DNA from: an uncultured Planctomycetales bacterium
GTDB lineage: Bacteria; Omnitrophota; Gorgyraeia; Zapsychrales; CAYJUK01
Assembly: GCA_964373335.1 (NCBI GenBank)
Contig: CAYJUK010000001.1
Coordinates: 719-61,964, forward strand
Length of the DNA stretch: 61,246 nt
Direction of reading: 5' to 3'
The notes beneath the pieces were generated by a model. The model did not search any database. It was not told where the DNA came from and worked only from the letters and a program-made list of their open reading frames with translations. Below, in pieces: positions 34,591 through 52,908 of the stretch (its first letter is position 1; each line of letters begins with the position of its first letter). Position numbers and translations under genes: made by a program.

Positions 34591-35348
34591 ATGTTGTCCT
34601 GATCATGGCTAAAGAAGGAAGTCTGGGCCTTCCGGGGAAAAACATATGGAAGATTAAGGAGAAAGGGACATTGCTTGAGTGGACGATCTCGGATGGCCGG
34701 CAATCCAAACTCGTTGATCGGGTTTTTGTCAGTACTAATGGGGAGAAGATCGCTCGTATCGCTCAAGAGGCCGGGGCTGAGGTGATCAGGAGAGAAGATG
34801 AGTTAGCCAAGAATGAAAAATTCCTGGAAGGTGTGGATCATGCCATCAGGACAATCAAAACATTCCATCCCTCGTTGGCTGTAATTGCGATTCCGCAATG
34901 CGTGGTTCCTTTCCGGGATCCTGATATCTTTGACCGCTGCATCTCGTTTTTATTGGAGAATAAGGCATATGATTCCGCGATCACGATTCGGAATGTGGGA
35001 TTTATCCCGGAGGCCTTAATGAAGATTGAGGGAGAAGATCTCATCCCTTATTTCCCTCACACGCAGGCCAACGTCTCCGGCTCCCGGCAAGACAGCTCCG
35101 GTTATGAGATTGATCATGCAGTAGAATGTTTTCGTTATGAGTCCTGGTTGAATCGAGAAAAAGGTATCCGGCCGTGGAATTATTTGGGGCGTAAGATCAA
35201 GGGAATCAAACAGTATTTTCATAATCCCAATTGCTTTGTCGATGTCCATGAGATCGATGACATCCGCTGGCTGGAATTTATTATTGATCATTGGGGATGC
35301 CAAGGGATGAAGTCTGCGACTTTAAGGAAAGATTATACTTGTTCTTAA
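34587..35348 (+). CDS. acylneuraminate cytidylyltransferase-family protein (third CMP-NulO-synthetase-like gene)
   Basis: GTGA overlap with the upstream gene. VVLIMAKEGSLGLPGKNIWKIKEKGTLLEWTI resembles the NeuA N-terminus. Confidence 0.72.
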   Translation: MNVVLIMAKEGSLGLPGKNIWKIKEKGTLLEWTISDGRQSKLVDRVFVSTNGEKIARIAQEAGAEVIRREDELAKNEKFLEGVDHAIRTIKTFHPSLAVIAIPQCVVPFRDPDIFDRCISFLLENKAYDSAITIRNVGFIPEALMKIEGEDLIPYFPHTQANVSGSRQDSSGYEIDHAVECFRYESWLNREKGIRPWNYLGRKIKGIKQYFHNPNCFVDVHEIDDIRWLEFIIDHWGCQGMKSATLRKDYTCS

Positions 35349-35493
35349 TGAAAACTTCGCACAAAACGGCGAAGTTTTCATTAAACCCCAATTTTGCAAT
35401 ACAAAATGTGGGGTTAAACCCCAATTCAACACCCGGGTGCTGAATTGGGGTAAACAAGCATTTCCTAAATACGAAATTTTGATTAATAGGTGG
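35334..35493 (+). repeat. left copy of a long inverted repeat; composite of three hairpins
   Basis: Hairpin 1 has a 16-bp perfect stem (35345-35360 / 35369-35384). Hairpin 2 is at 35384-35415 (AACCCCAATTTTG..CAAAATgTGGGGTT). Hairpin 3 has an 11-bp perfect stem (35418-35428 / 35441-35451). Its reverse complement recurs at 56829-56952. Confidence 0.85.
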
Positions 35494-35498
35494 GATAG

Positions 35499-36443
35499 AT
35501 GTCAAAAGGGAAATTATTTATATCAACGACCACATTTGGGCTCTGTGATCCAATGCCTTTATTGAAATTAAAAAAGGCAAAGATCAATTTTTCCTTGAAT
35601 CCTTTAAAAAGGACATTAACCACCGCGGAGCTCATCAATTTTCTGGATGGATCAAATTATCTGATCGCGGGAACGGAAAGAATTACCCGGGAAGTCTTTC
35701 GCCAATGTCCTCATCTGGAATTCATCTCACGCTGTGGCAGCGGAATCGATAACATTGACCTTAAGGCGGCGGAACAATATAATGTTTCAATTTCCTCAAC
35801 CCCGGAAGCGCCGGTTGGGGCAGTGGCCGAACTGACGCTTGCTTTCATATTGAATACATTAAGAAATATCAATTCCGCCGATCGGATGTTGCGAGAGGGG
35901 AAGTGGCAGAAGCCCATGGGAAATCTCCTCTTTGGGAAGAAGATTGGGATTCTTGGATTCGGCAGGGTTGGCAGACGATTGGCCCATTTATTGCAGCCTT
36001 TCGAGGTACAGTTTTTGATCCACGAGATCATGCCTCCAAAGATTGTCAAGGGGCTGAAAAATCTCCAATTTTTATCACTCAGAGAGGTTTGTAAGCAAGC
36101 TGATATTTTGACAATTCATTTGCCTTACTCTTTCAAGGTTCATCATCTGATCAATCAGAGGACTTTAAGTTTGATGAAAAAGGATTTGATATTGATCAAT
36201 ACCTCCCGGGGAGAGATTGTGGATGAACAGGCCTTGGCCGATGCCCTTTCACAAAAGAAAATCAAAGCAGCTGCCTTGGACGTATTCGAGCAGGAACCTT
36301 ATTCCGGCCCGTTGACACAGTTTGAAAACGTTCTTCTAACTCCGCATCTGGGAGCTTATACGAAAGAAACACGTGTCGCGATGGAGCTAAAGGTTGTAGA
36401 GAACGTTTTAGATTATCTTCAGAGGCGCCCCGCCAATGATTAA
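35499..36443 (+). CDS. D-isomer-specific 2-hydroxyacid dehydrogenase (phosphoglycerate dehydrogenase/hydroxypyruvate reductase-like)
   Basis: NAD motif KIGILGFGRVGRRLAHLL, then INTSRGEIVDEQAL and TPHLGAYT (catalytic His region). Confidence 0.82.
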   Translation: MSKGKLFISTTTFGLCDPMPLLKLKKAKINFSLNPLKRTLTTAELINFLDGSNYLIAGTERITREVFRQCPHLEFISRCGSGIDNIDLKAAEQYNVSISSTPEAPVGAVAELTLAFILNTLRNINSADRMLREGKWQKPMGNLLFGKKIGILGFGRVGRRLAHLLQPFEVQFLIHEIMPPKIVKGLKNLQFLSLREVCKQADILTIHLPYSFKVHHLINQRTLSLMKKDLILINTSRGEIVDEQALADALSQKKIKAAALDVFEQEPYSGPLTQFENVLLTPHLGAYTKETRVAMELKVVENVLDYLQRRPAND

Positions 36444-37092
36444 GGCTATTATCTTAGATTTTGACGGGATTATTCTAGAGACCAATAGGATTAAGCTCAA
36501 TGGATTCTTGCATTTGTTTCGAGACTATCCTTTGAAAATTCGAAGAAGGATTAGAGATTTACATCTGAATAATGGAGGGGTTTCCCGATTTAAGAAATTC
36601 CGAATCATTTATCATGAGTTTTTGAAAGCACCTTTAATCCCTAAGGAAGAAAAGCGCTTAGGAGAAGAATTTTCCTCATATTGCTTCCAACAGGTCTTAA
36701 AAGCCCCTTATGTAAAAGGCATAAAGGTATTTTTAAATTGGGCTTACAGAAGGTATAATTTATTCATTGTCTCAGCCACTCCAGAGGCCGAAATCAGAGA
36801 GATCGTAAAGCGAAGAAAATTAAATAAATTTTTCAAATCTGTGTATGGATCACCCCATCCCAAAGAAGCCCTTTGCCGTAAGATTATCAAGAAGAATAAA
36901 TTTAAAAAAGAAGACGTATTGTTTATTGGGGACTCTCTGAGTGATCTCAGAGGGGCGGAGGCCAATCAGGTGGATTTTGTTGTGAGGATTCATGAGGATA
37001 ATAAAAAATTATTCAAGAATAAGGAGATTCTTCGAATTAAAAATTTTGTCAATTTTCCAGCCCGATTGAGAAAATCTTATGAAGAAAAATAA
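36436..37092 (+). CDS. HAD-superfamily phosphatase
   Basis: Motif I IILDFDGIILET (DxD), motif II VSATP, motif IV FIGDSLSD. Confidence 0.78.
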   Translation: MIKAIILDFDGIILETNRIKLNGFLHLFRDYPLKIRRRIRDLHLNNGGVSRFKKFRIIYHEFLKAPLIPKEEKRLGEEFSSYCFQQVLKAPYVKGIKVFLNWAYRRYNLFIVSATPEAEIREIVKRRKLNKFFKSVYGSPHPKEALCRKIIKKNKFKKEDVLFIGDSLSDLRGAEANQVDFVVRIHEDNKKLFKNKEILRIKNFVNFPARLRKSYEEK

Positions 37093-38014
37093 ATTGAAAA
37101 TCGTTGTCTTTGGGGGATCGGGATTTTTAGGCCGTTATCTTGTCGAAGCCCTTTTGCCGGAAGGCCATGAGGTGACCGTCTTTGATCTTAAACAATCAAG
37201 GGTGGAGGAGCAAGGGGGCAGATTTATTCATGGAGACATTATTGATCGTAAAAGGGTGGCCCCTGCCTTAAAAGGGGTGGATGTGGCCTACAATCTGGCG
37301 GCTATTTCCGATATCGATGAATGTATCCAAAATCCGGTTGAGGCCGTGAGACAAAACATCCTGGGAAATACGATCATCCTGGATGAATGTGTTAAGTCCC
37401 AGGTGAAGAGATTTATCCTGGCCAGCACATTGTATGTTTATTCCTCCTCGGGAGGAATCTATCGATCCACCAAACAGGCGTGTGAGTCCATTGTGGAAGA
37501 TTATCATAAATATTATGACCTCGATTTTACGATCTTAAGATACGGGACCCCTTACGGACCGGGAGCCAATGGGAACAACAGTGTTTATCGATTTTTAAGA
37601 CAGGCGATTGAGGAAAAGAAGATCGAATACCGCGGCACCGGGAATGAGATGCGGGAATATATTCACGCCCATGACGCCGCCTTGTTAAGCATCAAAGTGC
37701 TTGAGGAACAGTACCGGAATGAACGCGTGATCCTTTCCGGCCCCCATCCTATTAAGATCAGTGATTTTTTTATGATGATTAATGAGATTTTTGGTAATAC
37801 CTTGGAGATTCAATATGTGAATAACGAGAAGAAAATCCCGGAAAGACATTACCAGATGACGCCGTATTCTTATAATCCCAAGATAGCCAAAAAATTAGTC
37901 GGTCAGTCTTATCTGGACCTCGGGCAGGGCATCCTGGATTGCATTGAGGGCATTAAACAAAAAATCCCTGTGTCCTCGGCAGACCTCAATCAGACCTTCC
38001 CACAATTAAAATGA
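37079..38014 (+). CDS. NAD-dependent epimerase/dehydratase (extended SDR)
   Basis: IVVFGGSGFLGRYL and YRSTK (YxxxK). Confidence 0.82.
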   Translation: MKKNKLKIVVFGGSGFLGRYLVEALLPEGHEVTVFDLKQSRVEEQGGRFIHGDIIDRKRVAPALKGVDVAYNLAAISDIDECIQNPVEAVRQNILGNTIILDECVKSQVKRFILASTLYVYSSSGGIYRSTKQACESIVEDYHKYYDLDFTILRYGTPYGPGANGNNSVYRFLRQAIEEKKIEYRGTGNEMREYIHAHDAALLSIKVLEEQYRNERVILSGPHPIKISDFFMMINEIFGNTLEIQYVNNEKKIPERHYQMTPYSYNPKIAKKLVGQSYLDLGQGILDCIEGIKQKIPVSSADLNQTFPQLK

Positions 38015-38769
38015 AAGAGATCCGCCATATCTGTTTGGATAAAGATGGAACCCTCATCGATGTTCATCTCTATTGGTCGTCCATTATTCACAAACGCTCA
38101 TTAAAAATCCTTGAACAATATTCAATCTCCAGGGAATATCTAGGTGATTTATGCCTGGCGATGGGGATTGATCTTCCTCGGCAGAAGATCATTAAGGATG
38201 GGCCGGTGGGGTATAAACCGCGCCAGATCGTGATCGAGGCGGCTGTCCGAACTCTCAAAGGATTAAATAAAGCCGCCACCTTTCGTCTGGTCAGCGAATT
38301 ATTTGAAGCTGTTGACCGAGAGATGCAGCAGAGGGAAGATTATCAAATAAAGGTTTTACCGAATATTGGACCTGCCTTGAAGGTTATGAAGGAACTGGAT
38401 TTGAAAATCTCCATATACACCTCAGACCGTTTAGAGAATCTGAAAAGCATTATGCGAAAATTGAAGCTAGAAACTTTTTTTGATGGATTGATTGGAGGAG
38501 ATTTAGTCAAGAATCCCAAACCGGATCCGGAAGGGTTCTTACTGGCCTGTGAGGCGGTAGGTGTTTCTTTAGAGCATTCCATTTATGTCGGTGATACTGT
38601 GGATGACATGCAGATGGCCAAGCTGTCTTCAGATGGTCAGGGATGGGGAGTAACGACGGGTCTGTGTTCTCAGAAAGAGTTGCTGAAGCACACACCGTAT
38701 GTTTTCCCTTCTTTACTGGCTATGAGTGATCATTTGATGAAAGGACGCAACCGGTGTATAACGCATTAG
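38011..38769 (+). CDS. HAD-superfamily phosphatase (phosphoglycolate-phosphatase-like)
   Basis: ATGA overlap. ICLDKDGTLIDV (DxDGT), IYTSD, KPDPEGF, YVGDTVDD. Confidence 0.8.
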   Translation: MKEIRHICLDKDGTLIDVHLYWSSIIHKRSLKILEQYSISREYLGDLCLAMGIDLPRQKIIKDGPVGYKPRQIVIEAAVRTLKGLNKAATFRLVSELFEAVDREMQQREDYQIKVLPNIGPALKVMKELDLKISIYTSDRLENLKSIMRKLKLETFFDGLIGGDLVKNPKPDPEGFLLACEAVGVSLEHSIYVGDTVDDMQMAKLSSDGQGWGVTTGLCSQKELLKHTPYVFPSLLAMSDHLMKGRNRCITH

Positions 38770-39623
38770 TCAAAATCGTCTGCCGAGATGAGCACAAGAT
38801 GATTTTCCGGGTTTATCCTGACGCGATCAAGATCAAATACCAGGCCGGTCAGTATGGGGCCTTAGGCCTCAGTAACCATGTCAATCGGATTGATCGAGAA
38901 ACCTTGTTCCGAAAGAATGGTGAGCTCCTGATCAAAAGGGCTTATTCCCTCTCCAGTCCAATCCTGGATGAACAGGATCACCTCTTGGATCCTTCCCACT
39001 TGAATTATTATGAATTCTATGTGGATTTGGTCTTAGCCGATGAGGAGTCAAAACCCCGTCTTTCTCCGCGGCTATTTTTCCTTAATGACAATGATCGTAT
39101 TTATGTTGGCCCCAAGATCGTTGGGCATTATACCTTACAGACAAGGGAAAAAGAGAGGAATGTCCTCTTTATTTCAACGACAACCGGAGAGTCTCCTCAT
39201 AATTCCATGATCTTGGAACTCTTGAAAAATAATGAAGCCATGGCTATGAGCAATCTTGTTGTCAGTGAAAAGGGCTGGATATCGGCCTATCATAATGTTC
39301 ATAGGCGTCTTATGAAACTGATTCCTCATTATAAATATATAACCTTTCAGAATGATGCGGGTTTTAGGAATTTAGAAACCTTTTTAGAACAGTGTCTGCG
39401 AGATTCGCGTTTTTCTCAAGAGGCCATGGGATGGGAGGTTAATGCAAAGAATACGCATATTTATCTTTGCGGGGATCCCCGGATGATCGGAGCACCGTTA
39501 AAATTAGGTGGATGGAAGTATGAATACCCGGATTATGGCTTAATGAGATTATTGCAGAAGTTTAAATTTCAGCCGTCCACAAGGTTCCAATTGGGCAATG
39601 TCAGTTTTGAATCCTATTGGTAG
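38754..39623 (+). CDS. ferredoxin-NADP(+) reductase-like flavoenzyme
   Basis: RAYSLSS (the RxYS FAD motif), FISTTTGESP (NAD(P) GxG-like) and YLCGDPRMI. GTG start overlapping the upstream gene by 16 nt. Confidence 0.7.
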   Translation: MYNALVKIVCRDEHKMIFRVYPDAIKIKYQAGQYGALGLSNHVNRIDRETLFRKNGELLIKRAYSLSSPILDEQDHLLDPSHLNYYEFYVDLVLADEESKPRLSPRLFFLNDNDRIYVGPKIVGHYTLQTREKERNVLFISTTTGESPHNSMILELLKNNEAMAMSNLVVSEKGWISAYHNVHRRLMKLIPHYKYITFQNDAGFRNLETFLEQCLRDSRFSQEAMGWEVNAKNTHIYLCGDPRMIGAPLKLGGWKYEYPDYGLMRLLQKFKFQPSTRFQLGNVSFESYW

Positions 39624-39629
39624 GAGAGA

Positions 39630-40688
39630 ATGATGGATCGATTTGAGTTAGAGAAAAAGATTCTATCCCAAGGGCATTTTTTCAAGTTGATTTGCGGGGC
39701 TGGTAATGAGGATGCCGAGGAAGTCTATAAGCTCACCCTAGTCTATGCCTTGGCTGGTGCCCTGGGCGTGGATGTCTCAGCCAAACCGCAGGTCGTCACC
39801 TCGGCGAAAAGAGCGGTTTTGAAGGCGAGATCCCTGGCTCCACAATTCGGTATCCAGAAATTTGTTGATCCCTATATCACTGTTTCAGTTGGGATGCCGG
39901 GAGATCAGCATGTGCGTAAGGCCCATATCATTACCGAGAATTGCACCGAATGCAATGCCTGTATTCCTGTTTGTCCAACGGATGCGATTCCTAAAGAACT
40001 TGTCATCATTCGTCAGCGATGTATTGGCTGCGGGGCATGTTCTGTCGCTTGTCAAGATGATGCCATTGGTTATACGCATAATCAAATCGATATGGAGCGA
40101 GTGTTGAATGAATGCATCGAAGCCGGCGCTGAGAATATTGAATTACACTCGAATATCCCAGATCATGAACCCACCCTGGTGGAATGGGAATTGATCAATA
40201 AGCTTTTACCGGACAGCTACGTGAGTGTGTGCACTGATCGAGGATATTTATCCAATCATGAACTCATGAAACGAATTAAGATGATGTTAGAGGTAGCCCC
40301 AGGAAGGATGATTGTGCAAGCAGATGGTATCCCTATGAGCGGAGGAAAGGATGATTACAATACCACACTGCAGGCTGTCGCCACAGCCGATATCGTGGCT
40401 AAAAGTCAGCTTCCTGTTTTTATCCTCCTCTCGGGAGGGACGAATTCAAAGAGTATCGAGCTATCCAAGGCGTGCGGTGTCCCTTACGCCGGTGTTTCTA
40501 TTGGAACATTTGCCCGGCATCGGGTTTATCCCATTATTAATCAGCCGGAATTTCCTGAACAGGGTCTTCTGAAGCAGGCTGTGCAAGTGGCCCGTCAACT
40601 GGTAGCGACCTGTTATCCCTTTGATAAGGAATATGAAGATTCACGGACAGAATTAGCCAGGAGAACATATACCGCGATTGAACCCTAG
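39630..40688 (+). CDS. 2x[4Fe-4S] ferredoxin-domain protein, LdpA-like
   Basis: FKLICGAGNEDAEEV..VDVSA N-terminus plus CTECNACIPVCP and CIGCGACSVAC clusters. GGAGAG lies upstream of the ATG. Confidence 0.72.
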   Translation: MMDRFELEKKILSQGHFFKLICGAGNEDAEEVYKLTLVYALAGALGVDVSAKPQVVTSAKRAVLKARSLAPQFGIQKFVDPYITVSVGMPGDQHVRKAHIITENCTECNACIPVCPTDAIPKELVIIRQRCIGCGACSVACQDDAIGYTHNQIDMERVLNECIEAGAENIELHSNIPDHEPTLVEWELINKLLPDSYVSVCTDRGYLSNHELMKRIKMMLEVAPGRMIVQADGIPMSGGKDDYNTTLQAVATADIVAKSQLPVFILLSGGTNSKSIELSKACGVPYAGVSIGTFARHRVYPIINQPEFPEQGLLKQAVQVARQLVATCYPFDKEYEDSRTELARRTYTAIEP

Positions 40689-40755
40689 AGAAACGTGGTA
40701 TTATCCCTCGTTTTTCTGGGATCAAAGAAATTTTTAATATTGCGAACTTAATGAA

Positions 40756-41586
40756 ATGAGAGGGATAGAGTTGACAACGAACAGTCAAGCGAGTCTTAAA
40801 GAGCGATTGAAGAAAGGAGAGGTTGTTTTAGGAACTTGGGGGACTCTTCCTTCGGCTTCGGTGATGAATGTCCTCGGCCTCAGTGGTTTGGATTTTGTGA
40901 TCATTGATATGGAACACGGGCCTATTGATATAGGACAGGCAGAACAGATGGTGCAAACTTTAGAGGTCAGTGGAACAGTCCCTATTATTCGTGTCTCTAC
41001 CAACGATCCGTCATTAATCCTAAGGGCCCTGGATATTGGTGCCCAGGGAGTTCAGATCCCCCATATCTCAACGGAAGAGGATGCCCGACTGGCTGTTCGC
41101 AGTGCTAAATATGCCCCGGAAGGAGAGCGGGGATTCACACCATTCACTCGAGCTGGGCAGTATGGATTAGCCGCGGAAGGATATGCGGAAAAGGCCAATG
41201 AACAGACAATGGTGATTTTGAATGTCGAGGGGGTAAAAGGATTACATAATCTTAAAGAAATCCTTAAGGTGAATGATATTGATGTTGTTTTCATCGGGCC
41301 GTATGATCTGTCTCAATCTTTAGGCAAAACCGGACAGGTAGAAGATCCTAAGATCGTAGATTATATCCGTTCCAGTGTGCAATTGATGAAAAGTCAGGGG
41401 GTGGCGTGCGGTTCTTTTGCGGGGAATGGGGAATTTCTTAAAATCCTCATGGATTGCGGAGTACAGTATATTACTTTTTCCGTCGATTCTGCGGTGATGA
41501 TGAAGGCCTATCAGGATATTCTCTCTCAATTTCATATGATGAAGAAAGGATCTAGGCGTGGACAATCGATTCCCAACAGAACTTGA
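40756..41586 (+). CDS. HpcH/HpaI-family class II (pyruvate-dependent) aldolase
   Basis: VLGTWGTLPSASVMNVLGLSGLDFVIIDMEHGP, then GAQGVQIPHISTEEDA and FIGPYDLS. Confidence 0.8.
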   Translation: MRGIELTTNSQASLKERLKKGEVVLGTWGTLPSASVMNVLGLSGLDFVIIDMEHGPIDIGQAEQMVQTLEVSGTVPIIRVSTNDPSLILRALDIGAQGVQIPHISTEEDARLAVRSAKYAPEGERGFTPFTRAGQYGLAAEGYAEKANEQTMVILNVEGVKGLHNLKEILKVNDIDVVFIGPYDLSQSLGKTGQVEDPKIVDYIRSSVQLMKSQGVACGSFAGNGEFLKILMDCGVQYITFSVDSAVMMKAYQDILSQFHMMKKGSRRGQSIPNRT

Positions 41587-43282
41587 AATCTTAGATTGTA
41601 CCATTCGGGATGGCGGGTATTTGAACCAATGGCAGTTCGATAAGAAGCTGGTCAAAGAACTCTACCGGAATCTTTCCCGCACTGGAGTGGATATCATCGA
41701 GATTGGGCTGCGAAATATTCAAAAAAAGGACTGCGGCCTATGGTATTCCACCCCGGAAGAATTGATCAATGAACTCTTTCAAGATTGTTCCGGAGCCGCT
41801 CTGGCCTTGCTGATTGATGAAGCTCGGTCTGACTTGTCTTGTATCCCTGAGGCTAAGGAAAGTTTGGTCAGGTTATACCGTATCGCCTGTCATAAAAACA
41901 GGGTTCTGGAAACTATCCATTTGTGCGAAGCGATTAAGGCCAAGGGATATAGGACTTCGTTACAGTTGATGGGTATTGTCGGTTATTCGGAAAAGGATTT
42001 TGAATCGATTATCAAGCCTGTTGCCCAGTCGTCCGTAGATTATATTTATTTTGCCGATAGTTATGGTTCCCTTTTTCCTCCCGACATTAAAAGATGTATC
42101 CAATGGTTAAGGCCAACCGGGAAAAAGATCGGATTTCACCCCCATAATAACCTGCAATTGGCCTTTGCAAATACCCTGGAGGCTATCAATAACGGTATTG
42201 ATATCGTTGATGGAACAGTCAATGGGATGGGTCGGGGGGCAGGCAATCTCCCTTTAGAGGTTTTGATAATCTATTTAGAAAAAACACTCAATCATAGAAA
42301 ATATAACTCACTTCCGATCCTGGACTTGATCGACCGGTATTTTAAGGCTTTACGCGTTGAATTTCAGTGGGGTTATAGTCTCCCGTATATGTTATCGGGG
42401 ATTTCTGAGGTTCATCCTGATTATGCCAAGACGCTTATTGATCAGTATCAATATAGCGTTGATGAGATGGTGAAGATTTTGGATATGATTAAAGATCTCA
42501 ACCCCATTGGCTTTAATAAAGAGTTATTAGATCGGGTGATCAGCAGTGGGTTTATCAGACCTATGGATATTCAGACAGAGCGGGGACATAATATTCTTGA
42601 AATAGAGAATCTTTTTAAAAAGCATCCGGTAAGGCATAAAGATCGTCATACGGGAAGAGACTTTTTAATCTTGGCCAATGGGCCCAGCCTCAAAGAGCAC
42701 AAGGATGAAATAGATGAGTTCATAAAGATTTATGATCCCATCGTGATGGGGGCGAATTACCTGGCAGGATTATTTAAACCCCATTATCATGCCTTCAGTA
42801 ATAAAAAGAGATTCATGACCTACGTAGATCAGGTGGATGAGCAGTCTCAGCTTTTGCTTTCTTGCATCTTTGATGAAGAATTCATCCGGGATTATACAAA
42901 AAGGAAATACGAGACGATCGTGCATTTGAACCGTTTTTCCGACAATTTTGAGATCGTTAACGATGTCATAACCTCAAACTGTAGGACGATTTCTATTCTC
43001 CTGATTGGGGTGGCCATCATGATGGGAGCCAAAAGGATTTTTATCGCTGGGATGGACGGATACAAAAGTCATGAGGATTTTATCTTGAACAATCTCCATT
43101 TTTATCAAGAGACTGCTGAGACGAAAAATTTCAAAGCCCTGCTGGAATTGCACAATTGGAATGAGAGGTTGTTGAGCAGCATCAATGCTTATCTTTTAGC
43201 GCGGAATAAAGAAGGCCTGAGCATTATTACACCAACAAGTCATAAGTATTTCTATAATAGCATTTATAACCTGCAAAGGTAG
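41558..43282 (+). CDS. HMGL-like (pyruvate carboxyltransferase/aldolase TIM-barrel) domain fused to a DUF115/Maf-like domain
   Basis: N-terminal ILDCTIRDGGY..FHPHNNLQLAFANTLEA..VDGTVNGMGRGAGN. The C-terminal ~230 aa, FLILANGPSLKEH..MGANY..IFIAGMDGY, resemble the MptE/motility-accessory-factor domain. GTG start with a 29-nt overlap. Confidence 0.68.
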   Translation: MDNRFPTELEILDCTIRDGGYLNQWQFDKKLVKELYRNLSRTGVDIIEIGLRNIQKKDCGLWYSTPEELINELFQDCSGAALALLIDEARSDLSCIPEAKESLVRLYRIACHKNRVLETIHLCEAIKAKGYRTSLQLMGIVGYSEKDFESIIKPVAQSSVDYIYFADSYGSLFPPDIKRCIQWLRPTGKKIGFHPHNNLQLAFANTLEAINNGIDIVDGTVNGMGRGAGNLPLEVLIIYLEKTLNHRKYNSLPILDLIDRYFKALRVEFQWGYSLPYMLSGISEVHPDYAKTLIDQYQYSVDEMVKILDMIKDLNPIGFNKELLDRVISSGFIRPMDIQTERGHNILEIENLFKKHPVRHKDRHTGRDFLILANGPSLKEHKDEIDEFIKIYDPIVMGANYLAGLFKPHYHAFSNKKRFMTYVDQVDEQSQLLLSCIFDEEFIRDYTKRKYETIVHLNRFSDNFEIVNDVITSNCRTISILLIGVAIMMGAKRIFIAGMDGYKSHEDFILNNLHFYQETAETKNFKALLELHNWNERLLSSINAYLLARNKEGLSIITPTSHKYFYNSIYNLQR

Positions 43283-43340
43283 GAAGGTAGGGAAGAGGAA
43301 GACCATTCTTCGCTGTCCAACTCCTTTTCTGGGAATCATA

Positions 43341-44075
43341 ATGAGAGTGATCGGTGTTATACCAGCGCGTTTAAAATCTACCCGGCTTCCCAATAAGGCC
43401 CTGGTGGATATTGAAGGGCTCCCCATGATTGTCCATGTCTTTAAACGAGCGGCGTTGTCTCAAGTCCTCGATGATGTCTTTGTCGCCACGGATAGTCCGG
43501 AGATTTATCAAACAGTCGTTCGTTTTGGCGGGAAGGCGGTTATGACAGCTTCTCACCATCAAACTGGTACGGATAGAGTTGCAGAAGCGGTTTCGTCTTT
43601 AACAACAGATATTGTTGTTAACATTCAAGGGGATGAACCTTTATTGGTCCCAGAGCATATTGATCAGGTTGTTGAACCCCTCTTGAGGGATAAGAATATT
43701 CAGGTGGCTATTTTAGTGGCTCCTTTTTCGAGAAAAAATAGTCCTTCGGATATTAAGGCCGTTCTGGATTTAGACCATAATATATTATATTGTTCCCGGA
43801 CAGATCTCCCTAGCCAGGCCCGGAATCCGGTGGAAATGATGTGGAAGATGTGTTTCATCGTCCCCTTTCGAAAGGATTTTCTTCTTCAATATACTTCCTG
43901 GTCTCAGACACCTTTGGAAAAGATTGAATTGAATGAATATTTACGGATTTTGGAACATAGTCATAAAATTAAAGCGGTTTGTGTACAGAAGGCCCATATC
44001 AGCGTCGATACTCCTCAGGATCTTGAAGAAGTTAAAGAGATCATGAAACAGGATCCCATCAAGCCCATGTACTGA
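43341..44075 (+). CDS. KdsB-family 3-deoxy-ulosonic acid cytidylyltransferase
   Basis: VIGVIPARLKSTRLPNKALVDIEGLPMIVHV, HQTGTDRVAEA, VNIQGDEPL. Confidence 0.82.
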   Translation: MRVIGVIPARLKSTRLPNKALVDIEGLPMIVHVFKRAALSQVLDDVFVATDSPEIYQTVVRFGGKAVMTASHHQTGTDRVAEAVSSLTTDIVVNIQGDEPLLVPEHIDQVVEPLLRDKNIQVAILVAPFSRKNSPSDIKAVLDLDHNILYCSRTDLPSQARNPVEMMWKMCFIVPFRKDFLLQYTSWSQTPLEKIELNEYLRILEHSHKIKAVCVQKAHISVDTPQDLEEVKEIMKQDPIKPMY

Positions 44076-44132
44076 GCTCCATACATACCTTAAGATAAAA
44101 CTGTTAATCAAAGAAGCAATATTTATCACCTT

Positions 44133-45956
44133 ATGATCATCCTTTCTAATATCCCGGGAGTTATTCTGAATTTCCTCCTTCATGGTTACCCTGTTAGCCA
44201 ATGGATCTATTTAGGGAAAAGTGATAAAGTTCTCTATAAATTAAAACGTTTTCTCCCTTCCCAGGCTCATTCCATTGATTATGCCCGTAAGCTCTATGAA
44301 TTAAGCGAAAAATGGAGAGATCAATATATCCGCTGGATCGATGAAATTTCTTTTTCCGGGCCGATCAGTAAAGAATGGCTTTTCTCTGTCCCCGCGGTTA
44401 AAAATCCCTATATTAGCAATGTTTATCTTTATCTTTGCTACTTCTTTGTATTGGAAGAATATCTTCGGGAAGATAAAAAAATAGATCTGGTGATCGTTGA
44501 TTCTCCTGCCTTAAGTTTCCTGTTGAAAAAGTATTTTTCCAAACGCATCCGATCCCATCCTATCAATGCTTTCCTGGGAAGCAGAATTTATCTGGAAGTC
44601 TTTTTCCGGACTATTTTAAGATTCTTTCGGCATGCCATTGATTTTGCCAGGGCTTGGGTTGCGGCCAAGAGGGTCTTTAAAGACAGATGCAGAAAGCTAC
44701 TCCGAGATAAGAAGATTATACTTATTAGAAATTATATTACGGTTCAGTATTTAAAATCCAAAACGGAAGAATTTGATCTACGGTACTTCCCTAAACTTTA
44801 TTCTTATCTTCAAGAACATAATAGTGTTCCTGTCTTTCTCCCATTGGCTGTGGTGAGGAATTATCGTAAATTATATAAGAAGGTGAGGGAGAGTAAACAA
44901 CTGATTATTTTTCCAGAGGAATTTTATAAAGTCCGGGATTATTTCAATACTTTTTCCAGTCCTCTGCGTGCCTTATGTTATCCATTAAAAATCCCGGAGT
45001 TATCGGGTTACTCTTTCGCTCCTCTGATTCGGGAAGAATATTATGCTAACCTGACTCAATCTGGCATCCTTAATGCCATTCTTCTATCCTGTTTTGGCAG
45101 ACGGTTAAAACAAAGCGCCATTGATCTTAAAGGGATCATCAATTGGGCGGAATTTCAAGCCTTTGAAAAGGGATTGGTGAGTGGATTAAGAGAGGCGTTC
45201 CCTGCGGCCAAGTTCATCGGCAGTCAGCCCTTTTTGACTGCTCCTAATCATATGTCACTGATCCCTAGTCAACAAGAGAGATTATTAAGATTAATTCCCG
45301 ACCGTCTTCTGGTATTAGGCCCTCTCGGGAAAAGACTAATCAACGACTATACTGTTAATGTGAATGTTGATTTTACTCCTGCATTTCGTTATCAATCCGT
45401 TTTCAAGTCTTTTTCTTCCAGAAACGGTGAGCATAAGAATATTTTGGTCTTGATGGGATATAGTTTGACCAATGCGGTCCATACCATGAAGATCTTGTGT
45501 CAGTGTCGAGAATATTTACAGGACTATCAATCCGTATATATTAAACTTCATCCAGTTGCGAATTATAACAAAGAGATTTTGATGAAGGAGACTATTATGG
45601 CCTTGCCTCATAATTTTAAATTTGTTGAAGGGGCCCTGGAGAGTTATCTGGAAAAGATTTCTTTGAGTATTTGTGGAGGTTCTGGAACGGCTGTTGAGGT
45701 TGTTTTGAGAGGTATTCCCGTCATCCTTATAGCTGATAGTAACACATTGACTATGAATTATCTCTCTTATAAGCGGGATCCCTATTTATGGAGGTTGTGT
45801 TTTTCTCAAGATGAGGTCAAGGAAGCTCTGCAATACTTTCGCAAAATCCTCTGTGAGCAGCCAGAACAATTAAGTCAAAAGGCTTTGGAGTTCAGAAGGT
45901 TATATTTTGCTGAACCGGATAATCGTTATTGGGAAAATTATTTGATTCGGGAATGA
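44133..45956 (+). CDS. uncharacterised 607-aa putative GT-B transferase with an HP signature
   Basis: C-terminal NILVLMGYSL.., VYIKLHPVANY, then ISLSICGGSGTAVEVVLRGIPVILI. Same layout as the product of 32611. Confidence 0.58.
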   Translation: MIILSNIPGVILNFLLHGYPVSQWIYLGKSDKVLYKLKRFLPSQAHSIDYARKLYELSEKWRDQYIRWIDEISFSGPISKEWLFSVPAVKNPYISNVYLYLCYFFVLEEYLREDKKIDLVIVDSPALSFLLKKYFSKRIRSHPINAFLGSRIYLEVFFRTILRFFRHAIDFARAWVAAKRVFKDRCRKLLRDKKIILIRNYITVQYLKSKTEEFDLRYFPKLYSYLQEHNSVPVFLPLAVVRNYRKLYKKVRESKQLIIFPEEFYKVRDYFNTFSSPLRALCYPLKIPELSGYSFAPLIREEYYANLTQSGILNAILLSCFGRRLKQSAIDLKGIINWAEFQAFEKGLVSGLREAFPAAKFIGSQPFLTAPNHMSLIPSQQERLLRLIPDRLLVLGPLGKRLINDYTVNVNVDFTPAFRYQSVFKSFSSRNGEHKNILVLMGYSLTNAVHTMKILCQCREYLQDYQSVYIKLHPVANYNKEILMKETIMALPHNFKFVEGALESYLEKISLSICGGSGTAVEVVLRGIPVILIADSNTLTMNYLSYKRDPYLWRLCFSQDEVKEALQYFRKILCEQPEQLSQKALEFRRLYFAEPDNRYWENYLIRE

Positions 45957-46002
45957 CAGGTTCTTAATCCAAAAATCACGCATCTTCTATAAAGGTGAGG
46001 AA

Positions 46003-46032
46003 AGTAAAGATTAGTAAAGATTAGTAAAGATT
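46003..46032 (+). repeat. 10-bp perfect tandem repeat x3 (agtaaagatt)
   Basis: Read directly: 46003-46012, 46013-46022 and 46023-46032. One helical turn per unit, immediately upstream of a candidate promoter. Confidence 0.9.
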
Positions 46033-46036
46033 AAAC

Positions 46037-46064
46037 TTGGAAAAGAAAAGAAGTTTGTTATAAT
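46037..46064 (+). promoter_or_regulatory. candidate extended -10 promoter (TTGGAA, 16 nt, TGtTATAAT) for the radical SAM gene at 46102
   Basis: -35-like 46037-46042, TGn 46056-46058, TATAAT 46059-46064. TAAGGT lies about 12 nt before the ATG. Confidence 0.4.
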
Positions 46065-46101
46065 CATTTTTAATATATATAGAAAATAAGGTTAATCATT
46101 T

Positions 46102-47658
46102 ATGAGTTTAAAAATACTGCTTATTTACCCCAATTTTAGAGGCATGAACATGCTGCCGCCAGGAATTTCCCTTCTCTCCGCTGTTCTTAAGCAGAGAGGT
46201 TTTCGGGTGAAACTTTTTGATACCACATATTATGATTCCATCGAAGGCAAGTCTCTGGATTCGGATGCCTCTAAAAGTGACCGACTCATGGCCCGTCCAT
46301 TTAAGATGCCCAATGAGATCTCCTATACACGAACAGATTGCTTTGAAGATTTTGAGAAAGAAGTATTAGATTTCCAACCGGATCTATTGGCCTTATCCTG
46401 CACGGAAGATATGTTCTCACTGGGGATTAAATTGTTAAAGAAGGCCAGATATTTAAATATCCTGACCATTGCGGGTGGTGTTTTTCCTACCTTTGCCTCT
46501 AAGCTTGTCCTCAGTTTCCCAGAGGTAGATATCGTTTGTAAAGGAGAAGGAGAGGATGCCTTAAGCACTTTGTGCGAACGTCTTCAGAAGGGCGAACAAT
46601 TCGATGATGTCAGTAATTTATGGATTAAAAAGAATGATGGAACTATCAAGATTAACCCCACCCGAATGGTGGACATGGATTCTAATCCCCTGATAGATAT
46701 GTCAATCTTTGAGGAGGCACGATTCTACCGCCCCATGGGGGGGAAAGTTTACCGGATGTTTCCGGTAGAGACTCATCGGGGTTGTCCCTATACATGTGCC
46801 TTTTGCAATTCTCCTTCCCAAATGGAGTTATATAAGAAAGAGGAGGGGAAGTCCTATCTTCGCCGGAAATCCTTTAAGAATATGTATCAGGAGCTTCTCT
46901 TTTATAAAAACGTAATGAAGGCAGAGTATCTCTATTTTTGGGCTGACACTTTTTTCTCCTGGAAGAAGGGAGAATTTGAAGAATTTTCAGAGATGTATAA
47001 AGATATTCGCCTCCCCTTTTGGTGCCAGACCAGGATCGAAACCGTTACCCCGGAACGTTTGATTTTATTAAAAGGGATTGGATGCGCGCGGATATCATTT
47101 GGGATAGAACATGGGAACGAACAGTTCCGCAGACAATGGTTAAAACGGCCGGTTTCAAATGAATTAATGATTAAAAATTTTAAGTTTGTCAGAGACAGCG
47201 GCATCCCATTCAGTGTGAATAATATTGTTGGGTTTCCTCATGAGACCTATGACTTGGCTTTTGATACGGTCCGTTTTAATCGGTTCATTGAAGCCGATGA
47301 CCGGAACGCGTATCATTTTACTCCTTTTCACGGCACACCCTTGCGAGATGAATGTGAACGATCCGGTTTTATTAAATCAGAAGACATTTGCCAGTCGTTT
47401 GTTATCGGAGATGCAATCTTAGATATGCCTCAATTTCCTAAAAAGACTGTACAAAGACTGATTAAAACTTTTAATATGTATGTGAAATTTCCCGAATCCC
47501 GATGGTCAGAAATTAAAAAGGCTGAAGAAGATTCTGCGGAGGGGAAAAAAATTTATCAGGCTTTAAAAGTAGAATTTAAGGATCGTTTTTTTAATATCCG
47601 CGATGAAAGTTTTGAAGCCGCTGCTATGGAAAAAGTTCTTACGGCCCCAATGAACTAA
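46102..47658 (+). CDS. cobalamin-binding-domain radical SAM enzyme (class B), paralogue of 16418
   Basis: LKILLIYPN..LFDTTYY, CKGEGEDAL, and CxxxCxxC in HRGCPYTCAFCNS. Confidence 0.8.
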   Translation: MSLKILLIYPNFRGMNMLPPGISLLSAVLKQRGFRVKLFDTTYYDSIEGKSLDSDASKSDRLMARPFKMPNEISYTRTDCFEDFEKEVLDFQPDLLALSCTEDMFSLGIKLLKKARYLNILTIAGGVFPTFASKLVLSFPEVDIVCKGEGEDALSTLCERLQKGEQFDDVSNLWIKKNDGTIKINPTRMVDMDSNPLIDMSIFEEARFYRPMGGKVYRMFPVETHRGCPYTCAFCNSPSQMELYKKEEGKSYLRRKSFKNMYQELLFYKNVMKAEYLYFWADTFFSWKKGEFEEFSEMYKDIRLPFWCQTRIETVTPERLILLKGIGCARISFGIEHGNEQFRRQWLKRPVSNELMIKNFKFVRDSGIPFSVNNIVGFPHETYDLAFDTVRFNRFIEADDRNAYHFTPFHGTPLRDECERSGFIKSEDICQSFVIGDAILDMPQFPKKTVQRLIKTFNMYVKFPESRWSEIKKAEEDSAEGKKIYQALKVEFKDRFFNIRDESFEAAAMEKVLTAPMN

Positions 47659-48043
47659 TAGAAAAGCGAAGCAAACCATTTCGAGGCAGAATTCCCTCAC
47701 AATTTAAAGCTGCTTTTTTCCCCTGCAGTAAATTTTATATTGATCATTTTTTCCTCGCTACCTGTTTGCCGAACAGGCAGGTGGGGTCCGTAGGTAAATG
47801 AAAAATAATTTTTAAAGAAGATTATATTGATTTCAACGGGTTTATAAACTTAAAAATCATATTTTGTAAGCCCGCGGAATAGAGTTTGTTAGCCTTAGTT
47901 CCGCAGTTTGGCAGAAAGAATTTTTGAAGGCTAAATTTTCCACGACAGCCAATACAGTCTTTTATCGAGTGCGATTTAAACTGTGGAACCAGGGTGAGAT
48001 GAAGAATCCCTTGGGTCTTAAGTCTTTCTTAAAGAATTAGATA

Positions 48044-49027: not shown

Positions 49028-49030
49028 ACT

Positions 49031-49885: not shown

Positions 49886-49896
49886 AGTCCATCCTC

Positions 49897-50871: not shown

Positions 50872-50932
50872 TGTTGACCGCTGAGCAGGGGAATCCGTAT
50901 TTAGAAATGAACGGCTTTTAAGGAAAGCATTG

Positions 50933-52897: not shown

Positions 52898-52908
52898 AAG
52901 ATAGTTCC

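Follow-up and report, generated by a model that had tools for sequence, protein, structure and literature searches.

A block of genes at positions 38011–47658 of the window (the whole stretch of DNA analysed, 61,246 nt) recurs in many other genomes, and its conservation supports a functional coupling between aldolases and a homologue of the cytidylyltransferase KdsB. We tentatively propose that this cassette encodes a self-contained, aldolase-based route to a CMP-activated 2-ulosonic acid other than Kdo, which would be modified and then transferred to a surface polysaccharide. We found no paper on this cassette in the literature.

Gene content and conservation of the cassette

Family assignments with Pfam and NCBIfam bore out the gene content originally predicted for 35499–45956. 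All ten open reading frames (ORFs) lie at exactly the predicted coordinates, on the forward strand and mostly overlapping, and belong to the predicted families, the FNR-like reductase by weak matches and the GT-B-like protein through AlphaFold2 and Foldseek. From 35499 to 40688 neighbouring genes overlap or are 6 bp apart, and later gaps measure 57–67 bp. The predicted boundaries of the module stood only in part. The conserved core is 38011–47658 and comprises, in order, a HAD phosphatase, an FNR-like reductase, an LdpA-like Fe-S TIM barrel, an HpcH aldolase, a fusion of an HMGL-type aldolase to a DUF115 domain, the KdsB-like protein, the GT-B protein and a B12-dependent radical SAM enzyme. 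The original prediction omitted the last of these (46102–47658) and included 35499–38014, a stretch of variable accessories that lies outside the core. Downstream of the cassette are GT2, Wzy_C and GT1 genes.

To define conservation, we used 16 non-redundant GTDB-species loci whose fusion protein is at least 50% identical. The KdsB-like gene occurs in 14 of them, the two without it being contigs of 6–7 kb, while the core phosphatase gene (HAD-b) is present in all 16 and the HpcH and LdpA-like genes in 13 each. All these genes share one strand, and their offsets mostly recur from locus to locus; HAD-b usually follows the LdpA-like gene with the same offset each time. In the closest relative, L087, gene order is identical: HAD, FNR-like, LdpA-like, HpcH, fusion, KdsB-like, a 604-aa protein and B12-radical SAM. 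Many unrelated metagenome-assembled genomes (MAGs) contain this block, so the genes do not lie together by chance. Two natural triple fusions, P0261 (781 aa) and P0269 (774 aa), join aldolase, DUF115 and KdsB-like domains in single polypeptides. The predicted link between the aldolases and the KdsB homologue is thus supported, both by conservation across phyla and by these fusions. It extends to distant fusions (32–48% identity range), which lie directly beside a CTP_transf_3 gene in L022, L028, L029, L034 and L036, with a HAD gene also adjoining in L022 and L036. Such a trio of fusion, HAD and CTP_transf_3 genes follows the same logic as the synthase, phosphatase and cytidylyltransferase in the pathways to Kdo and Kdn.

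Upstream of the core are three accessory genes and one possible addition, all on the forward strand. The latter (34587–35348; Pfam CTP_transf_3 2e-13, N-terminal half only) encodes a divergent cytidylyltransferase paralogue, 25% identical to the LegF-like product of 6965; its membership of the module is uncertain, and in L087, too, additional CTP_transf_3 genes shortly precede the cassette. The first accessory (35499–36443; 2-Hacid_dh_C 5e-55) is a D-2-hydroxyacid dehydrogenase resembling PGDH and glyoxylate/hydroxypyruvate reductases, whose best NCBIfam matches, PGDH (228 bits) and glyoxylate reductase (200 bits), are both under cut-off; a homologue is found near the distant fusion in L022. 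The second, a HAD-IA phosphatase (HAD-a, 36436–37092; HAD_2 3e-17), has homologues directly after the fusion and CTP_transf_3 genes in L022 and L036. The third, an SDR NAD-dependent epimerase/dehydratase (37079–38014; Epimerase 6e-42), reaches no NCBIfam equivalog cut-off; in L036 the fusion is directly preceded by a homologue, and in P0372 a KdsB-like protein is fused to the C-terminal part of another. Instead of 35499–38014, L087 has GFO_IDH_MocA, a GT2-CTP_transf_3 fusion and, in place of 35499, an Ldh_2 dehydrogenase.

These accessories bear on an alternative raised in the original prediction, that the module makes a small hydroxy- or oxo-acid of the glycerate, lactate or hydroxy-oxovalerate type to decorate Pse, Leg or the polysaccharide. 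The canonical product of DmpG is such a small acid, 4-hydroxy-2-oxovalerate. The 35499 dehydrogenase and a HAD phosphatase could yield glycerate or hydroxypyruvate, the Ldh_2 protein of L087 is a different 2-hydroxyacid dehydrogenase at the same place, and Pse and Leg with N-glyceroyl and related substituents are known (PMC5378307). However, the conserved core contains no acyl-activating enzyme, acyl carrier protein or acyltransferase, and the dehydrogenase and HAD-a genes belong to its variable surroundings. Moreover, we know of no KdsB-family enzyme that activates acyclic small acids, as the reaction needs a cyclic hemiketal hydroxyl beside the carboxylate. Substituent synthesis is thus very improbable.

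The KdsB-like cytidylyltransferase

None of the loci examined has a PEP-dependent synthase (NeuB/KdsA) inside its cassette. The window contains four CTP_transf_3 paralogues (6965, 27272, 34587 and 43341) but only two NeuB genes, at 2520–3593 in the Leg module and 29582–30613 in the Pse module, both modules lying upstream of the cassette, and there is no DAHP_synth_1/KdsA-type protein among its annotated ORFs. The original prediction was therefore right that the module lacks a synthase and that the NeuB genes are accounted for by Leg and Pse. As evidence for a new route, though, this lack proves little alone, since E. coli group 2 capsule (kps) clusters have kpsU but likewise no kdsA.

That precedent is in line with another possibility, in which 43341 is a CMP-Kdo (or near-Kdo) synthetase dedicated to capsule or O-antigen, like E. 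coli KpsU, fed by housekeeping KdsA and KdsC encoded elsewhere (our synthase search covered the window), while the rest of the cassette, aldolases included, makes something unrelated. The protein (43341–44075, forward strand; Pfam CTP_transf_3 2e-51) indeed passes the NCBIfam KdsB cut-offs (NF009905, 265 versus 255; TIGR00466, 181 versus 155), and its best PDB match is KpsU itself (1GQ9, 3.7e-43; about 43% identity, counted by eye). It also keeps the nucleotide-loop, QGDEP and VDTP motifs for CTP, Mg and catalysis, together with a near-invariant S-R. Its clade nevertheless differs from canonical KdsB exactly at the Kdo-contacting residues. The canonical KHxGIYAYR and EQLR, which by our count are present in about 85 of 143 KdsB-family representatives, read KMCFIVPFR and EYLR in 43341, and the resulting changes (His181→Met, Tyr185→Val and loss of the Gln of EQLR) hold throughout the cassette clade; Tyr185 is a ligand of the Kdo C5-OH (PMC12199768). 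At the level of sequence, these altered residues argue for a substrate other than plain Kdo and against plain CMP-Kdo as the product, although a Kdo-like substrate is still allowed because the KdsB equivalog model is passed. Ordinary CMP-Kdo supply would, in addition, leave the tight co-occurrence and natural fusion with an aldolase protein unexplained. Finally, among the contigs with the cassette are some whose labels name an archaeal or actinobacterial MAG (L016, L038, L036), and Kdo-containing LPS is not expected in these groups. Overall, CMP-Kdo supply is improbable.

Aldolases, transferase candidates and putative tailoring enzymes

Both aldolases have intact catalytic residues. The HpcH/HpaI class II (metal-dependent) pyruvate aldolase (40756–41586, forward strand; HpcH_HpaI 1e-32), core in the close clade, falls under all NCBIfam equivalog cut-offs; the solved structure closest to it in sequence is YfaU (4e-40), whose catalytic His, Arg, Glu and Asp positions are identical in the alignment. 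The predicted role of HpcH as the pyruvate aldolase is consistent with these residues, but the member most widely tied to the cytidylyltransferase is the HMGL-DUF115 fusion. This signature protein (41558–43282, forward strand; HMGL-like 5e-29) combines a DmpG-type aldolase TIM barrel (about residues 9–310) with a DUF115/MptE-like, GT42-like domain (about 350–574), and not one of its more than 5700 homologues carries a specific name. Its best PDB matches are 3DXI, a 'putative aldolase' (4.5e-48), and then DmpG (3e-19), of which it conserves the Arg, Asp and His-x-His metal site (R17, D18, H194 and H196), while DmpG His21 is replaced by Tyr. To our knowledge, all characterized HpcH and DmpG-type enzymes are catabolic.

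The C-terminal half of the fusion, taken alone, matches MptE-like/DUF115 at 35.3 bits (gathering cut-off 34.6). As a profile against the PDB, it matches only the CstII/CstI GT42 sialyltransferases (E 0.03–0.08, over the donor-binding region), a weak resemblance to their CMP-sugar-binding region; for Maf proteins, a structural relationship between DUF115 and Cst-II has been reported in the donor-binding region (bioRxiv 10.1101/2020.06.03.131540). Given this likeness, the fusion may act after activation and not before. The DUF115 domain would then bind an activated sugar (CMP-Pse or CMP-Leg from the neighbouring modules, or another NDP- or CMP-sugar), and the aldolase domain would attach three carbons from pyruvate to a keto or aldehyde function made by the SDR, giving a branched or chain-extended acidic sugar; the LdpA-like, HAD and B12-radical SAM proteins would tailor it, and the KdsB-like enzyme would activate a different or released intermediate. 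Consistent with such modification, the Leg and Pse modules lie in the same window, an SDR gene recurs next to the fusion, and distant fusions adjoin NeuB or homologues of the large 32611-type protein (L025, L028). In L021, the fusion, LdpA-like and HAD genes occur, with no CTP_transf_3 gene within ±10 kb, amid heptose-nucleotide and branched-chain-sugar genes (HldE-like, a GmhA-like SIS gene, a sugar C-methyltransferase and a TPP enzyme that on our reading may be YerE-like). On the other hand, NeuB lies within 10 kb in three of the 16 loci and is absent from that range in 13, the cassette brings its own KdsB-family enzyme, and the triple fusion reads equally well as synthase, transferase and activase. 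Furthermore, the KdsB family takes free ulosonic acids in all cases known to us, and we know of no aldolase acting on a nucleotide-linked sugar. Modification at the nucleotide-sugar level is therefore possible but rather unlikely.

A second transferase candidate is encoded by 44133–45956 (forward strand), a 607-aa protein with no Pfam match, no PDB sequence match and faint matches to TIGR04326 (3e-8) and DUF6716. Its AlphaFold2 model (pLDDT 90) retrieved GT-B glycosyltransferases in Foldseek (E about 1e-7), and thus agrees with the predicted GT-B fold. H473-P474, invariant in the family, follows a beta-strand of the C-terminal Rossmann half; in sialyl- and beta-Kdo transferases the HP histidine is the leaving-group acid (PMC9587256). 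A KdsB-like gene followed by an approximately 600-aa homologue occurs in L001, L003, L087, L012, L036 and others, consistent with a putative transferase for the CMP-activated product.

The remaining core genes, also on the forward strand, suggest dephosphorylation and tailoring. HAD-b (38011–38769; Hydrolase 2.8e-24) is phosphoglycolate-phosphatase/PpaX-like. The FNR-like reductase (38754–39623) is weakly assigned (no Pfam match at 1e-3; NAD_binding_1 0.007; NCBIfam ferredoxin-NADP reductase, Fpr, 3e-6) and confined to the closest cassettes, with same-position orthologues 58% identical in L087 and 48% in L012. The LdpA-like protein (39630–40688; LdpA_C 8e-15 and Fer4) is a (beta/alpha)8 TIM barrel into which a 2x[4Fe-4S] ferredoxin domain is inserted, and the eight Cys of its two motifs are invariant across 31 homologues. 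It scores 163 bits against NCBIfam LdpA, below the cut-off of 450, and its AlphaFold2 model (pLDDT 89) is nearest in Foldseek to the class II FBP aldolase, YdjI and SqiA barrels (E about 1e-7; target-normalized TM about 0.44–0.64). The cobalamin-dependent (class B) radical SAM enzyme (46102–47658; B12-binding 1e-12, Radical_SAM 7e-17), a putative C-methylase, has orthologues 77% identical at the same position in L087 and 75% in L012, and a B12-radical SAM gene lies beside the cassette in L001, L003 and L036.

A possible route to an acidic surface sugar

From the families, catalytic residues, cassette conservation, fusions, altered Kdo pocket and GT-B fold described above, we infer all substrates, the sequence of steps and the end product of the proposed aldolase route. 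The first step would be a condensation by a class II metal-dependent aldolase, in which pyruvate (possibly hydroxypyruvate) reacts with an aldose, free or phosphorylated, to form the 2-oxo-acid skeleton; in known pathways, PEP-dependent KdsA/NeuB hold this role. The most widely coupled candidate is the HMGL-type domain of 41558, with HpcH as a second or auxiliary aldolase. HAD-b, perhaps with HAD-a, would then remove the distal phosphate, as KdsC does. Tailoring might include C-methylation by the radical SAM enzyme, a redox step by the LdpA-like protein with the FNR-like reductase, and contributions from 35499 and 37079. The KdsB-like enzyme would link the acid to CMP, and the GT-B protein and/or the DUF115 domain may transfer it, with the downstream GT2, Wzy_C and GT1 proteins completing incorporation of the sugar into a Wzy-type polysaccharide.

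In favour of this route are the conservation of the cassette, the triple fusions, the coupling of distant fusions to CTP_transf_3, the lack of NeuB/KdsA, the aldolase residues, the altered sugar pocket with CTP/Mg motifs kept, the presence of transferase candidates and aldose-phosphate supply genes in related loci (transketolase-like, TAL_FSA and HAD genes in L003; the SIS and HldE-like genes in L021). Against it, two pyruvate aldolases and a third aldolase-type barrel exceed the need of a simple synthase, characterized relatives are catabolic, the KdsB equivalog is passed, and L023 (a 9.2 kb contig), like L021, has the fusion, LdpA-like and HAD genes without CTP_transf_3. The original proposal of a 3-deoxy-2-ulosonate formed by pyruvate aldol addition may thus hold given the coupling, residues and pocket, while the GT42-like DUF115 sequence leaves room for a role at the nucleotide-sugar level. 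If true, the cassette would represent a route to an acidic surface sugar of an undescribed kind, in many uncultured bacteria.

The cassette, its boundaries and its surroundings

All 53 gene-like ORFs of at least 150 aa lie on the + strand, and the window is one continuous glycan-biosynthesis island. Every 2 kb bin shows positive GC skew, and G+C content drops from about 0.44 to 0.35–0.37 at the 3' end (56–60 kb), home of the Wzy_C-like and GT genes. In the original prediction, the region 35499–45956 was a module in which pyruvate aldolases replace a NeuB or KdsA synthase in making a CMP-ulosonic acid. The ten ORFs of this region have the coordinates and, by Pfam and NCBIfam, the families given to them there: a D-2-hydroxyacid dehydrogenase (35499), two HAD hydrolases (36436 and 38011, the latter called HAD-b here), an SDR epimerase/dehydratase (37079), an FNR-like protein (38754; weak matches, 3e-6 and 0.007), a 2x[4Fe-4S] LdpA-like protein (39630), an HpcH/HpaI aldolase (40756), an HMGL-like aldolase fused to an MptE-like/DUF115 domain (41558; 'the fusion'), a KdsB-family cytidylyltransferase (43341) and a GT-B-fold protein without a family match (44133). 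A class B (cobalamin-dependent) radical SAM gene (B12-rSAM, 46102–47658; PF02310 1e-12, PF04055 7e-17) follows. The window has only two NeuB genes (2520 and 29582), within complete Leg and Pse modules as predicted, and none within 35499–47658; a KdsA-type gene, also predicted to be absent, was looked for in the window and is not present. Neither PF00793 nor NeuB was found inside the cassettes of three related loci (L001, L003 and L087), and there are no KdsA, KdsC or WaaA genes in the window or the related loci.

Homologues of the fusion number more than 5700, nearly all of them metagenomic and bearing generic names only. A scan that took one genome per GTDB species brought out a recurring neighbourhood of HAD-b, (the FNR-like protein), the LdpA-like protein, HpcH, the fusion, the KdsB-like enzyme, a protein of about 600 aa without a Pfam match, and the B12-rSAM enzyme. 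In the closest relative, L087 (fusion 71% identical), the gene order from HAD-b to B12-rSAM is exactly that of the window, and both loci run on into RmlD-like, GT2, Wzy_C and GT1 genes. Among 16 non-redundant loci whose fusions are at least 50% identical, HAD-b is present in all, the KdsB-like gene in 14 (the two others being contigs of 5.9 and 7.3 kb), and HpcH and the LdpA-like gene in 13 each, while NeuB lies within 10 kb of the cassette in only three. MAGs with the cassette include GCA_034680565.1 and GCA_016928195.1. Given this recurring block, the conserved core in the window is 38011–47658, and the module boundaries first proposed need to be redrawn: 35499, 36436 and 37079 are variable, and L087 has instead a GFO_IDH_MocA gene, a GT2–CTP_transf_3 fusion and an Ldh_2 dehydrogenase. 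Since more distant fusions in two other loci (L022 and L036) do have homologues of 36436 and 37079 beside them, these two genes are recurrent accessories. Scans of 34400–48100 for promoters (31 versus 30.9 expected) and terminators (15 versus 14.1 expected) were at chance level, and so are no guide to operon boundaries.

These boundaries bear on whether the region could make a substituent of the glycerate or lactate type. Such a role would suit the dehydrogenase and its HAD partner, but both belong to the variable part of the region, and the conserved core is without acyl-activation or acyl-transfer genes, such that we find this explanation very improbable. A study of T. forsythia names no genes for making its N-glyceroyl substituent (PMC5378307).

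Relative to the syntenic L087, the window has an insertion at 48044–54111, all on the + strand, of a polysaccharide deacetylase (48044), a 284-aa protein without a family (49031), a methyltransferase (49897), an E1 component of a 2-oxoacid dehydrogenase with alpha and beta fused in one chain of 655 aa (50930) and a lipoyl-domain E2 acyltransferase (52909). No E3 is found near the E1/E2 pair, and such a pair in a glycan island suggests that acyl or two-carbon units are transferred to a sugar.

Between the Leg and Pse modules sits a phosphonate module (11586–21531, + strand). It encodes a PEP mutase fused to a MobA-like nucleotidyltransferase (14688–16349), which by our own reading has a Fom1-like architecture, a TPP decarboxylase resembling phosphonopyruvate decarboxylase (19162), a class V aminotransferase (20389), a CDP-alcohol phosphatidyltransferase (13278), a methyltransferase (13928), a second nucleotidyltransferase (18220) and two B12-rSAM enzymes (11586 and 16418), the island's third being 46102. 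This content suggests a methylated, cytidylylated phosphonate decoration. The cassette resembles the Fom1/Fom3 systems, in which B12-rSAM enzymes methylate cytidylylated intermediates (a CMP-linked one in the case of Fom3): next to its cytidylyltransferase it conserves a class B radical SAM gene, whose product is 28% identical to that of 16418. Unlike Fom1/Fom3, the cassette has no PEP mutase, and its cytidylyltransferase is of the KdsB type rather than Fom1's MobA-like type.

The aldolase fusion and its cytidylyltransferase partner

In both putative aldolases the fold and the catalytic metal-binding and Arg residues of class II pyruvate aldolases (YfaU, GarL, HpaI and SwHKA; DmpG/BphI) are conserved. 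Enzymes of the HpcH/HpaI and DmpG/BphI families reversibly join pyruvate to aldehydes to give 4-hydroxy-2-oxo acids, which have the 3-deoxy-2-ulosonate skeleton, and the hydroxyketoacid aldolase SwHKA also uses hydroxypyruvate. The 40756 protein scores 113.5 bits against HpcH/HpaI (gathering cut-off 25), and its alignment with YfaU shows identity at the positions of the catalytic and metal-binding His, Arg, Glu and Asp; it lies outside the characterised specificity groups (TIGR02311, 194 versus 368.8; GarL, 169 versus 407; RhmA, 149 versus 441). Across 14 homologues, the HMGL domain of the fusion (41558–43282) shows no variation at R17, D18, H194 and H196, which align with DmpG Arg17 and with its DRE-TIM metal site, Asp18, His200 and His202. 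In contrast to DmpG, however, the fusion has Tyr21 in place of the catalytic His21, its C-terminal half is DUF115 rather than the communication domain, and no DmpF-like gene is present. 3DXI, an uncharacterised 'putative aldolase' structure and the best PDB match of the HMGL domain, likewise keeps the Arg, Asp and His-x-His residues and has this Tyr. As the fusion also falls below the DmpG equivalog (TIGR03217, 103 versus 286), neither aldolase reaches an equivalog cut-off.

Known class II pyruvate aldolases are catabolic and belong to operons for aromatic or sugar-acid degradation, whereas the context of the cassette is entirely glycan biosynthesis, and an aromatic-catabolic role was rejected for this reason. 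Since PEP mutase is lacking from the related cassettes (L001, L003 and L087), we also rejected a part in phosphonate metabolism for the HpcH and HMGL proteins.

The structural-genomics entry 3DXI belongs to a family of stand-alone aldolase domains without DUF115, found in some 45 loci of gut Clostridia and Opitutales (L040–L086). These proteins (about 340–370 aa in three examined) are about 35% identical to residues 8–308 of the fusion, and a KdsB-like gene lies nearby in one locus only (L055).

Our firmest result is that the HMGL–DUF115 fusion is tied to a KdsB-family enzyme by three independent lines of evidence: (i) the recurring cassette itself, (ii) more distant fusions (41–48% identity) without HpcH or LdpA-like neighbours, directly followed by a CTP_transf_3 gene of another clade (L022, L028, L029, L034 and L036), with a HAD gene also following in L022 and L036, and (iii) natural triple fusions of aldolase, DUF115 and KdsB-like domains in the library proteins P0261 (781 aa) and P0269 (774 aa). 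A third library protein, P0265, is a DUF115–KdsB-like fragment. The KdsB parts of all three belong to a class in which NGDE replaces QGDE and an HE[HL]LR-type motif replaces EQLR; that of P0261 is of the KAYHxxxF type, and P0269 has KGYF. The signature enzyme is this fusion rather than HpcH, on which the emphasis had been placed. The idea of aldolases standing in for the PEP-dependent synthase that would serve a KdsB-type enzyme has real comparative support. The absence of KdsA, by itself, is a weak argument.

The cytidylyltransferase 43341 matches CTP_transf_3 (2e-51) and exceeds the cut-offs of NF009905 (265.3 versus 255) and TIGR00466 (181 versus 155.2), and its alignments show that the nucleotide loop, QGDEP, S-R motif and VDTP are kept. 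Among solved structures it matches E. coli KpsU best (3.7e-43; identity by eye, about 43%). The sugar pocket differs. In E. coli KdsB, Gln98 and Tyr185 hold the C5-OH of Kdo, and His181 lies in the site (PMC12199768). While 43341 keeps Gln98, its counterparts of His181 and Tyr185 (H-x-G-x-Y) and of the Gln of EQLR are M170, V174 and Y200, and the whole cassette clade has KMCF[IL]V[PA]FR (KMCFIVPFR in 43341) versus canonical KH[IV]G[IL]YAYR, and NEYLR versus canonical LEQLR. Because the Kdo-pocket motifs are altered throughout the clade, the substrate of 43341 is likely to be other than Kdo. The alternative of an ordinary CMP-Kdo supply of the KpsU type is compatible with the KdsB HMM scores, but neither the altered pocket nor the natural fusions fit it, and we consider it distinctly unlikely.

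The KdsB family as a whole has 17,350 hits. By hand count, canonical pocket motifs occur in about 85 of 143 KdsB-family representatives, the rest forming several non-canonical classes. Several altered-pocket classes among the library representatives P0258–P0407 are large (e.g. KQVC[IV]IPF with [VI]DM[LM]R, or KAYH..F with HE[HL]LR), and their substrates, judging from these motifs, are probably not Kdo either. Just upstream of the cassette, 34587–35348 encodes a divergent orphan CTP_transf_3 paralogue without an obvious synthase of its own, the family match being confined to its N-terminal half; the window therefore has four CTP_transf_3 cytidylyltransferases versus two NeuB genes. L087 likewise carries extra CTP_transf_3 genes just upstream of its cassette, one of them fused to GT2.

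Candidate tailoring enzymes and transferases

The LdpA-like protein 39630 scores well below the LdpA equivalog (NF045992, 163.5 bits versus a cut-off of 450) and shares with the cyanobacterial circadian protein only the architecture of two 4Fe-4S motifs plus LdpA_C. In its model, a two-cluster ferredoxin is inserted into a TIM barrel. The protein's nearest Foldseek matches are class II FBP-aldolase-type barrels (target-normalised TM mostly about 0.45–0.64), which are generic, so no specific function follows. The cassette HADs are not of the KdsC type (TIGR01670, only 0.002).

Two parts of the cassette are candidate transferases. The first is the C-terminal domain of the fusion, which in isolation scores 35.3 against DUF115 (PF01973; cut-off 34.6). 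Searched against the PDB, the DUF115 profile matched only the GT42 sialyltransferases CstII and CstI, with marginal E-values of 0.03–0.08, in an alignment that spans N-x-R-x-x-S ... G-x-D-x-Y (N-Q-R129-I-T-S ... G-I-D-F-Y). For the DUF115 of Maf proteins, too, a resemblance to the donor-binding region of Cst-II has been reported (bioRxiv 10.1101/2020.06.03.131540). On this likeness, the domain may act after activation.

The second candidate, 44133, is predicted to have a GT-B fold (AlphaFold2 pLDDT 90), its Foldseek matches being GT-B enzymes at E 2.5e-7 and weaker. An invariant H473-P474 follows a strand of its C-terminal Rossmann half, where it recalls the HP motif of ulosonic-acid transferases; in sialyl- and beta-Kdo transferases, the histidine of an HP motif serves as the acid for the leaving group (PMC9587256). 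The GT-B matches are generic, with no sialyl- or Kdo-transferase in the Foldseek top 50, and sequence and profile searches against PDB sequences found nothing.

Behind the phosphonate and Pse modules lie three further proteins of 650–700 aa without a Pfam family (21528–23636, 30620–32593 and 32611–34590), which may be the island's nonulosonate transferases. The last of these has weak GT-B-type matches (Epimerase_2, 0.0016, and DUF6716) and a strand-HP motif, IIRPHPS at 518, resembling that of 44133. As hhalign comparisons of the 44133 family with 30620 and 21528 were insignificant, and that with 32611 marginal (E 0.009, probability 4%), a homologous transferase behind each CMP-sugar module is not established.

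With nonulosonic acid (NulO) systems (Neu5Ac, Kdn, Pse and Leg), which combine a NeuB-type synthase and a CTP_transf_3 synthetase with Maf/GT42 or GT-B sialyltransferases, the cassette shares a CTP_transf_3 activating enzyme and, as in Kdn and animal Neu5Ac synthesis, a putative trio of synthase, phosphatase and synthetase, and it lies in a glycan island beside genuine Leg and Pse modules. It also contains DUF115, the signature domain of the Maf flagellin NulO transferases, with its reported relation to GT42. On the other hand, it lacks a NeuB-type synthase, its DUF115 has an aldolase barrel as fusion partner in place of flagellin-binding domains, and 43341 lies on the KdsB branch and not on that of NeuA/PseF/LegF (30% identity to the window's PseF-like and 25% to its LegF-like paralogue, in partial alignments).

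A possible aldolase route to CMP-activated acidic sugars

No description of the cassette or its parts was found in the searchable literature; its parts are of known families, and the scheme of a CMP-activated acidic sugar plus a transferase is of a known kind. The reading we favour, tentatively and at somewhat less than an even chance, is that the product of the cassette is a 2-ulosonic acid other than Kdo, formed by class II aldol addition and then tailored, activated with CMP and transferred. Pyruvate or hydroxypyruvate would be added to an aldose or aldose phosphate, the HMGL domain of the fusion being the most general synthase candidate and HpcH a second or auxiliary aldolase. A HAD enzyme would take off the phosphate, the B12-rSAM enzyme and the LdpA-like/FNR-like pair would tailor the skeleton, and the KdsB-like enzyme would join the acid to CMP, for transfer into a Wzy-type polysaccharide by the GT-B protein and/or the GT42-like DUF115 domain. 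Substrates and order of steps are all inferred.

One point for this pathway is that the set of aldolase, HAD, cytidylyltransferase and transferase repeats the logic of KdsA-KdsC-KdsB-WaaA with the synthase exchanged. Like the Kdo/capsule pathway (KdsD, KdsA, KdsC, KdsB/KpsU, and WaaA or KpsS/KpsC/WbbB), in which a 2-keto acid sugar is made, dephosphorylated, CMP-linked and transferred, the cassette combines a KdsB-family cytidylyltransferase with a HAD phosphatase in the same operon, and a putative dedicated transferase comes after the activating enzyme. Unlike that pathway, it has two class II pyruvate aldolases instead of the PEP-dependent KdsA, it adds a B12-rSAM enzyme and an Fe-S TIM-barrel protein, and its putative transferase shows no specific structure match to GT30, GT99 or GT107. 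Another point in favour is that L003, with transketolase-like genes, a TAL_FSA gene and a HAD gene, and L021, with a SIS isomerase and an HldE-like gene, carry their own aldose-phosphate supply.

L021 (2139–18611), from a Neomarinimicrobiota MAG, has a trio of fusion, LdpA-like and HAD genes. Beside the SIS isomerase, its neighbours encode the HldE-like kinase/nucleotidyltransferase, E1-like TPP subunits, a Zn-ADH, a sugar C-methyltransferase and an acetolactate-synthase-type TPP enzyme that may be YerE-like. That this trio stands among heptose-nucleotide and branched-chain-sugar genes, with no CTP_transf_3 gene within 10 kb, favours modification at the nucleotide-sugar level, in which the aldolase domain would add a C3 unit to an activated sugar bound by the GT42-like domain; so does the presence of NeuB beside some distant fusions. 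We judge this alternative unlikely.

To our knowledge, a PEP-dependent synthase of the KdsA/NeuB type builds every known CMP-activated acidic sugar (Kdo and the sialic, Kdn, pseudaminic and legionaminic acids), so that mining genomes for such sugars depends on detecting these enzymes. It is possible, though on the doubtful side, that the cassette is the first anabolic, PEP-independent route to a CMP-activated 2-ulosonic acid, with DmpG/HpcH-type aldolases replacing KdsA/NeuB, a previously undescribed acidic sugar as its product, and a spread across many largely uncultured phyla, in some lineages as a single aldolase/GT42-like/cytidylyltransferase polypeptide. Recent mass spectrometry of environmental bacteria found CMP-linked alpha-keto acids that are still unassigned (bioRxiv 10.64898/2026.04.20.719630), so products of such cassettes may exist.

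Aldolase-based synthesis, if correct, would be a new biosynthetic principle for CMP-activated acidic sugars, and the cassette could supply new aldolase biocatalysts for keto-acid sugars. The combination of aldolase and KdsB-family enzyme would then be a second way to make this class of sugar. It would explain part of the large KdsB-like set automatically named CMP-Kdo synthetase despite a different sugar pocket, and would point to a new surface sugar in Omnitrophota, Elusimicrobiota, Planctomycetota, marine lineages and others.
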